From Candidatus Heimdallarchaeota archaeon (GTDB lineage Archaea > Asgardarchaeota > Heimdallarchaeia > JABLTI01), in the NCBI GenBank assembly GCA_030614005.1, contig JAUWKS010000011.1:30001-62000 (forward strand): a DNA stretch of 32,000 bases. The letters run 5' to 3'. Every line of letters starts with the position of its first letter. Position 1 is the stretch's first letter. Made by a program: the position numbers and the translations under genes. Below the pieces are notes generated by a model that did no database searches, was not told where the DNA came from, and saw nothing but the letters and a program-made list of their open reading frames with translations. This document shows positions 15,557 through 15,712 of the stretch, piece by piece.

Positions 15557-15712
15557 TGGCGAAAAAGGGACCATTTCAAGCGTCTTGCAATCTCAATAGA
15601 TTGAGAGTTTTGCAATATTCTATCGTGGTCTTTATCCTTCGGAAATCCTAACCAATATCTATCTCAATCCTAAAGATATTGTTAGTCTTTTTCGGAGGCT
15701 TTTTCTTCGCCA
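15557..15712 (+). ncRNA. Candidate structured RNA (three-way junction), family not recognised
   Basis: Hand-folded. P1: TGGCG/CGCCA + AAAAAG/CTTTTT. P2: GACCA/TGGTC, TTGCAA/TTGCAA, TCTCAA/TTGAGA. P3: CCTTCGGAAA/TTTTCGGAGG, CTAAC(C)AATATCT/AGATATTGTTAG. G-U pairs favour the + strand; TATAAT at 15523-15528. Confidence 0.55.

Follow-up and report, generated by a model that had tools for sequence, protein, structure and literature searches.

Within the window, as the whole 32,000-nt stretch of DNA analysed here will be called, a gene for PolX (13773-15479, plus strand) is followed by one for a DUF202 membrane protein (15958-16323, plus strand) and one for a fused Fae-Hps enzyme (16368-17606, minus strand). 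The genome it comes from (G000) amounts to 3.62 Mb in 126 contigs, is 90% complete and has 33.5% G+C. Between the first two genes lie 478 nt (15480-15957) holding the element of about 156 nt, at 15557-15712, that is the subject of this work. The first-pass annotation took this gap for the largest intergenic one of the window; its extent stands, its rank is not clear, as the 568 nt between divergent genes at 13205-13772, whose sole ORF is a 79-aa one with a GTG start (13376-13615), would surpass it if that ORF were unreal. As regards the neighbouring enzyme, full-length fused Fae-Hps matches are confined to one Heimdallarchaeota family (12 genomes); in other Heimdall families only the Hps half is matched, and there are separate Fae-like matches elsewhere in the genomes of the first family.

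Folded with ViennaRNA, the element forms a three-way junction very near the one that had been drawn for it by hand, and the pairings listed in that drawing are present. The plus strand reaches -49.0 kcal/mol (z -5.18), equalled by none of 200 dinucleotide shuffles, and the minus strand -44.0 kcal/mol (z -4.26), so that the comparison of folding energy with shuffles went in favour of the proposed structure. With known families the outcome was blank. At gathering score nothing in Rfam 15 matches any part of the window, and on the element itself, with E allowed up to 10, there is noise only, the best scores being 11.6 bits for CsrB, whose cut-off is 71, and 19 for CRISPR-DR45, whose cut-off is 37. 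The two paralogues described below likewise have no Rfam match, and ARAGORN detects neither tRNA nor tmRNA genes in the window. The Rfam tRNA model matches only true tRNAs near two of the paralogues; in two genomes tRNA genes (L082:2182-2255 and L083:1131-1233) lie about 300-700 nt from a type C-like paralogue, the second of them spanning 103 nt and therefore probably containing an intron. Taken with the promoter and terminator signals considered below, the empty Rfam and ARAGORN searches agree with the description of the element as an unannotated, standalone structured RNA of no known family.

How widely is it found? BLAST detects the element once in G000, and in 9 of the 10 genomes of the genus together with the sole genome of a second genus, at 73-96% identity. 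In one Heimdallarchaeota family, covariance models bring to light two or three full-length diverged copies per genome (12/12 genomes). Model R3 detects no copy in the remaining 70 genomes of the class, and in a 150-genome sample of the phylum the best scores with model R2 were 18-22 bits, noise with neither synteny nor a convincing fold (R2, like R1, was built on the plus sense). A pattern scan of JGI metagenomes contributed 16 further members (116-159 bits), and public 'Candidatus Heimdallarchaeota archaeon' MAGs, many of them from cold seeps, carry the same element. A MAG labelled 'Candidatus Bathyarchaeia archaeon' (L093, DATKZI010000014.1) has an exact type A RNA core on a 447-kb contig and is probably a mislabelled Heimdall genome.

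In G000 the copy in the window, situated between PolX and DUF202/Fae-Hps, is paralogue A; paralogue B (C83:17828-17998) comes after a glycosyltransferase gene and paralogue C (C92:5102-5264) is between the genes for a HEAT-repeat protein and a pterin-binding enzyme. None of the genes next to the paralogues is RNA-related. Every paralogue is syntenic across 8-10 species, each in its own neighbourhood, and to judge from this and from their divergence the copies are a small, old gene family inherited vertically, not a mobile repeat.

The homologues align over their full length, and their helices covary. In A7, a 24-sequence alignment in the RNA (minus) sense, 96.8% of the cells that should pair are canonical, compared with 36-47% when the partners are slid by 1-3 columns; 23 of the 35 pairs have changed on both sides (203 cells), and the covariation score was reached by none of 500 shuffles. 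RNAalifold finds 22 of the 35 pairs compensatory, with a covariation term of -8.4. A7 was fitted to a covariance model, which biases it in favour of structure. However, the base of one arm, H2, has wholly different sequences in paralogues A, B and C, yet is paired in each, a result that alignment bias could not create. The helices are kept by compensatory change and a stable fold is under selection, which bears out the three-way junction of the first-pass annotation on the count of covariation as well.

From which strand is the RNA made? The plus strand had been chosen on account of three G-U pairs that would be A-C mismatches on the minus strand. For paralogue A by itself the point is valid: its fold is about equal or slightly better in the plus sense, where conserved G-U pairs correspond to A-C mismatches on the minus strand. 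The family tells otherwise. The minimum free energies of 21 members sum to -1020 kcal/mol in the minus sense versus -841 in the plus sense, 179 worse, and the alifold energy of the same alignment is -33.8 versus -26.4. Paralogue C folds with z -5.8 in the minus sense versus -2.3, and canonical pairing is at 88.8% in the plus-sense alignment versus the minus-sense figure already given. At interior helix positions of alignment A4 (21 genome members), A-C on the plus strand, which is G-U on the minus, outnumbers the reverse. The TATAAT (15524-15529) and the PolX T-tract to which the first-pass annotation pointed are certainly there, but neither is conserved in orthologues, and with that the promoter role of the former falls away. 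The plus-strand reading, initially accepted here too, was dropped on the analysis of energy, promoter and terminator. Its most coherent form would be an element in the 3' UTR of polX and, at the other paralogues, of the co-oriented genes upstream, and it is true that in the plus sense the element trails a co-oriented ORF by 25-80 nt in 3/3 paralogues of G000. We nevertheless regard it as highly unlikely: B and C fold poorly on that strand, no T-tract follows the element there, the upstream genes of the three paralogues are unrelated to one another, and the conserved TATA box and the palindromes at fixed distances, to which we come below, fit the other strand alone. Family-wide energy, canonical pairing, promoter, operators and terminator together thus argue for a gene on the minus strand, running from approximately 15712 to 15551, with start, end and transcript deduced from the sequence. 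The case also shows that a strand assigned from the G-U pairs of one copy may turn out wrong.

In the minus sense the RNA proper of paralogue A would have about 156 nt (15557-15712), an extent drawn from covariance-model matches of 156-163 bits, fold z-scores, covariation and the evidence on strand; its 5' end is placed at 15711/15712 and its 3' end in the U-tract just below 15557. Both ends belong to the closing helix, H1, in which the 5' strand, UGGCGAAGAA (15703-15712), pairs with the covarying 3' strand at 15557-15566. H1 has 9-10 bp, 9 of them modelled in A7, with 99.5% of cells paired and four pairs changed on both sides. The first-pass annotation had this helix, its P1, with a 3-nt bulge; the helix persists and the bulge does not, a continuous 9-10 bp being the better reading; the covarying pairs join A7 columns 9-12 with 163-166. 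Next comes the junction strand J1/2, AAAG (15699-15702), recognised from the invariant columns of alignment A6, in which AAGC at this place is the same in 21/21 genome members. The second junction strand, J2/3, is AUAAA here (15631-15635, from alignments A6 and A7), AAAAA in most members and AWAAA overall; the most conserved block of the RNA consists of GAAAAAGAC, which includes it, and the 5' strand of H3. J3/1, of 2 nt, is variable.

The two arms are each of approximately 62 nt. H2 (15636-15698), the P3 of the first-pass annotation, is the paralogue-specific one, delineated by covariation and by the folds of all members. Seven of its eight modelled pairs in A7 have changed on both sides, a tandem GA/GA internal loop interrupts it in types A and B, and its apical loop has 12-16 nt across members, that of paralogue A being of 13 nt (15661-15673) and carrying AGGAUUGAG. 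H3 (15569-15630), the former P2, is the conserved arm, supported by MFE folds and by covariation helices 3-5, whose pairs are 90-97% formed with 12 changed on both sides in A7. From the base upward it comprises a stem of 5-6 bp (5 bp in paralogue A), a 3x4 loop rich in purines, a 3-bp helix that covaries, a 4x4 loop, an upper stem and a terminal loop; the arm had thus been seen correctly, and what was taken for an '11x10 internal loop' is the 3x4 loop, the 3-bp helix and the conserved 4x4 loop in succession. In the 4x4 loop AAUA (15616-15619) faces GACG (15581-15584), the family-wide form being AAUA opposite RACR. MFE folds place CUCAAUCU in the apical part of H3 (15591-15606). Common to all the paralogues are the junction, the closing helix and H3 with its two purine-rich internal loops.

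The tips of the arms are complementary and change together. GGAUUG/CAAUCC in type A becomes GGGUA/UACCC in most of type C, GGGAG/UUCCC in type B and GAGAGA/UCUCUC in the second genus, while further members have AGGGUU/AACCCU or UGGGU/ACCCA. Cognate tip duplexes average out more stable than non-cognate ones (-7.3 versus -5.3 kcal/mol), with a permutation p of about 5e-5 that is inflated by the relatedness of the members; in some type C members the contact is limited to 3 bp. A covarying kissing contact is accordingly predicted between the apical loop of H2 and the H3 tip at 15591-15606, and such tip-to-tip pairing explains the repeated ATCTCAAT within the element. Side-by-side packing of arms tied at their tips would fit their equal lengths. 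Visual inspection for motifs of the K-turn, sarcin-ricin, T-loop and tetraloop-receptor kinds found no convincing match, and neither an Sm-site consensus nor another known protein-binding module was recognised in the RNA.

Upstream of the predicted start, signals are found at fixed distances. A TATA-like box, TATTTTAAAG in the RNA sense (15732-15741, minus strand), is at -30 to -21, and an A/T box is at the same distance in 24/24 genome members; in archaeal stable-RNA genes a TATA box is located about 26 nt upstream of the 5' end, and the spacing here equals the one seen ahead of the genes for SRP RNA and RNase P RNA in G000. (The genome has a complete archaeal SRP RNA, 105 bits, elsewhere than the element, and an archaeal RNase P RNA of 125 bits.) Farther upstream there is a candidate distal operator, the palindrome TTAACA-N6-TGTTAA at 15802-15819, starting at -108 from the RNA start and about 140 nt before the divergently oriented gene for DUF202. 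Allowing up to one mismatch, this palindrome is at -108/-109 in 20/20 promoters of types A and C; two promoters of type B have it at -112/-115, which makes 22/24 in total. A candidate proximal half-site, TGTTAT, is at 15749-15754 on the minus strand (-43 to -38); in all type C genes it is part of a full palindrome, TTAACA-N6-TGTTAT from -55, and in type A the half-site survives. At the paralogues the palindrome occurs at 15802-15819 in the window, at 4996 and 5050 on C92 and at 18093 on C83. It is not over-represented in G000 as a whole, which has 23 sites with at most one mismatch, four of these belonging to the RNA genes; the genome-wide scan of sites brought out no clear regulon. A similar site, TTAACACTTTCATGTAAA, is at C123:5890, between two divergent protein genes, one of 261 aa and the other, aminotransferase-like, of 390 aa.

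Two palindromes 53-54 bp from each other and upstream of a TATA box are the usual picture for a dimeric archaeal activator that binds cooperatively, so that the paralogues probably constitute one small regulon. Transcription would begin at about 15711/15712 from the TATA box, a dimeric transcription factor binding the palindromes at -108 and -55, and it would end in the U-tract that comes directly after H1. That tract, U6 at 15551-15556 on the minus strand, is the putative archaeal terminator: 4-6 T follow H1, directly or within 1-3 nt, in 23/24 genome members and in 16/16 from metagenomes, the type B copy of G011 having a broken run (TTTCTT). At all three paralogues the minus-sense element, with its U-tract, is then met by the 3' end of a convergent gene.

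As regards expression, words of the element were found among the reads of just one RNA run, a cold-seep metatranscriptome. There, a 101-nt contig with a word depth of 33 covers 15625-15700 and none of the flanks, which are covered in DNA runs. The contig is chimeric, with 25 nt of bacterial 16S fused to it, and reveals neither strand nor start nor end; it gives a faint hint that the RNA may be abundant in cells. A TATA box, an oligo-T terminator and conservation with covariation are features of an independent archaeal stable-RNA gene, and each of them is seen here at the level of sequence. Our favoured interpretation, which we hold to be probably correct, is that 15551-15819 on the minus strand constitutes a gene in its own right, encoding a stable, compact ncRNA of about 156 nt and representing an undescribed family confined, as searched, to one Heimdallarchaeota family.

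Several identities had to be considered before settling on this. The paired ends of the element and its location at gene ends are what a MITE, or a palindrome to which protein binds as DNA, might show, and the first-pass annotation mentioned a non-autonomous mobile element. With one BLAST copy per genome, and only two or three old, strongly diverged paralogues found with covariance models, each with its synteny kept across species, no target duplications and no near-identical dispersed copies, that idea does not fit; the asymmetry of canonical pairing between the strands points to selection on RNA, and a DNA-level element is to be regarded as extremely improbable. 5S rRNA was pursued because RF00001 finds no 5S gene in the family (no match in 12/12 genomes), and a three-way junction is its topology too. 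A highly divergent 5S rRNA has, however, practically no chance of being the answer: the idea fell on the finding of a bona fide 5S gene in G000, circularly permuted (C124:853-980, minus strand), with readable 5S motifs and an nhmmer E of 5e-12 for a profile made from the permuted 5S genes of sister families, and the element for its part has no match to RF00001 at E<=10, lacks the loop C and loop E motifs of 5S, and comes as two or three paralogues with different arms.

Other candidates were abandoned on features of the RNA itself. No conserved ACA follows either arm as would be expected of an H/ACA guide; UGAUGA, as in the boxes of a C/D guide, is present only in some type C members, and no conserved position has the 3-nt bulge with tandem G-A of a K-turn, which would be expected in either kind of guide. 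Guides in general vary in their internal loops, whereas here these are kept between paralogues. A hammerhead has core strands CUGANGA and GAAA together with a UH cleavage site; here the junction is made up of AAAG, AWAAA and a third strand of two variable nucleotides, and no Rfam hammerhead match was obtained. For the hallmarks of 5S, tRNA, hammerhead and C/D RNAs, models and motif readings thus agree with their reported absence. The Rfam Y RNA models have no match and no TROVE gene was found: a search of G000, 90% complete, for TROVE/Ro60 (PF05731) was negative with control genomes positive, and one for the Vault repeat had no match in G000 and none in its control either. Small ORFs (31 aa on the plus strand from 15556; 21 aa on the minus) are broken in orthologues by indels of 1-3 nt. 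A riboswitch or other leader was set aside on the order minus-sense element, U-tract and convergent gene 3' end at the three paralogues.

What might such an RNA do? Its anatomy, in which internal loops are conserved, one arm is specific to each paralogue and several paralogues are co-regulated, prompts a tentative suggestion, that of a trans-acting, protein-binding RNA serving as scaffold or decoy. Protein-binding RNAs usually look like this, with conserved purine-rich internal loops and a junction rich in A set in a rigid framework. Proteins would bind to a platform made of the H3 loops and the junction, H2 would lend each paralogue a specificity of its own, and the level of output would depend on the strength with which the factor activates the paralogues. 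Going further, one could imagine the RNA subunit of a lineage-specific RNP, an archaeal counterpart of Y, vault or 7SK-like RNPs or of bacterial protein-sponge RNAs, switched by a factor through the palindromes and with the H2 arms recruiting different partners; this fuller picture is speculative and, as matters stand, quite doubtful.

Might it instead pair with other RNAs? A base-pairing regulator in the manner of Qrr, with redundant paralogues and an exposed stretch (the A-rich GAAAAAGAC block or a loop) that meets mRNAs or other RNAs, would be in keeping with several paralogues sharing operators and a conserved core, and with the 3' U-tail, which is typical of RNAs handled by Sm-like proteins. 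We think it unlikely, nearly the whole molecule being locked in covarying helices and the tip contact, and the conserved bases that are left unpaired being those of internal loops and of junction strands 4-5 nt long, short for a seed. A ligand- or ion-sensing RNA or a ribozyme, its pocket formed by the junction and the kissing-tied arms as in purine, TPP or M-box riboswitches or hammerhead-type ribozymes, is a still different thought: three-way junctions with equal arms, a covarying loop-loop contact and invariant junction bases are encountered in such RNAs. Its prospects are slim, for the RNA has a promoter and terminator of its own and only a convergent gene's 3' end after it, which leaves no gene in cis for it to switch; the hammerhead core is absent, and among the riboswitch and ribozyme models of Rfam none scores even at E 5-10. 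Protein binding in trans remains the preferred possibility, at well below even odds.

Parallels with known systems are partial. The RsmX/Y/Z RNAs (under GacA) and Qrr1-5 (under LuxO) are likewise diverged paralogous RNA genes scattered in unrelated neighbourhoods, each with its own promoter, the same palindrome at a fixed distance, its own terminator, and variable parts around a conserved core. Rsm RNAs consist of successive GGA hairpins and titrate CsrA/RsmA, whereas Qrr RNAs use Hfq to pair with mRNAs. They are bacterial, smaller and simpler, in contrast to the rigid three-way junction with a kissing contact here; type C does not conserve GGA motifs, and neither sequence nor model comparison reveals any likeness, as the low CsrB score attests. 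Y and vault RNAs, small stable RNAs of eukaryotes with Y RNAs also in some bacteria, have in common with the present family a size of about 100-160 nt, a closing helix that joins the two ends, an oligo-U tail at the 3' end, few paralogues and a conserved protein-binding part beside a variable one; they differ in architecture, in addition to the lack of Rfam matches and of a detectable TROVE/Ro60 in G000. In the purine-riboswitch 'tuning fork' and the SRP Alu domain, side-by-side arms of a three-way junction are also tied by G-C-rich loop-loop pairs, though with arms of 15-20 nt versus about 62 nt, and riboswitches are 5' leaders with an expression platform as opposed to a separate gene. With 5S rRNA there is the shared three-way junction closed by the two ends, and a stable-RNA gene with a similar promoter; the element differs in failing the Rfam model, in the absent loop C/E motifs and in having paralogues.

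Asgard archaea are the closest archaeal relatives of eukaryotes, and to our knowledge very few structured ncRNAs beyond the universal ones are known in them; for Heimdall archaea our literature search found none described. At the level of RNA families the one reported here is new. Its occurrence in one archaeal family limits its general reach; covariation, a promoter with candidate operator, a predicted tertiary contact and three paralogues make it well suited to experiment.

The permuted 5S gene encountered along the way merits separate mention. Those of sister families are arranged likewise (L024:1490-1690, plus strand; L023:1440-1640, minus strand), with the 3' half ahead of a short loop capping helix I, then the 5' half, and with flanks that pair together; the permutation explains why Rfam 5S matches are absent or below threshold in the class. 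In the literature we found, permuted 5S rRNA is confined to organelle cases (PMC4267664). The flanks of the permuted gene of G016 (L024:1496-1511 and 1674-1699) match a region of G000, C63:14524-14575, at 16/16 and 23/26 bases. There the two matches are 10 nt apart in the same order and orientation, and form an inverted repeat within the gene for the replication factor C small subunit, a likeness due either to chance in A/T-rich DNA or to a shared sequence resembling a processing stem.
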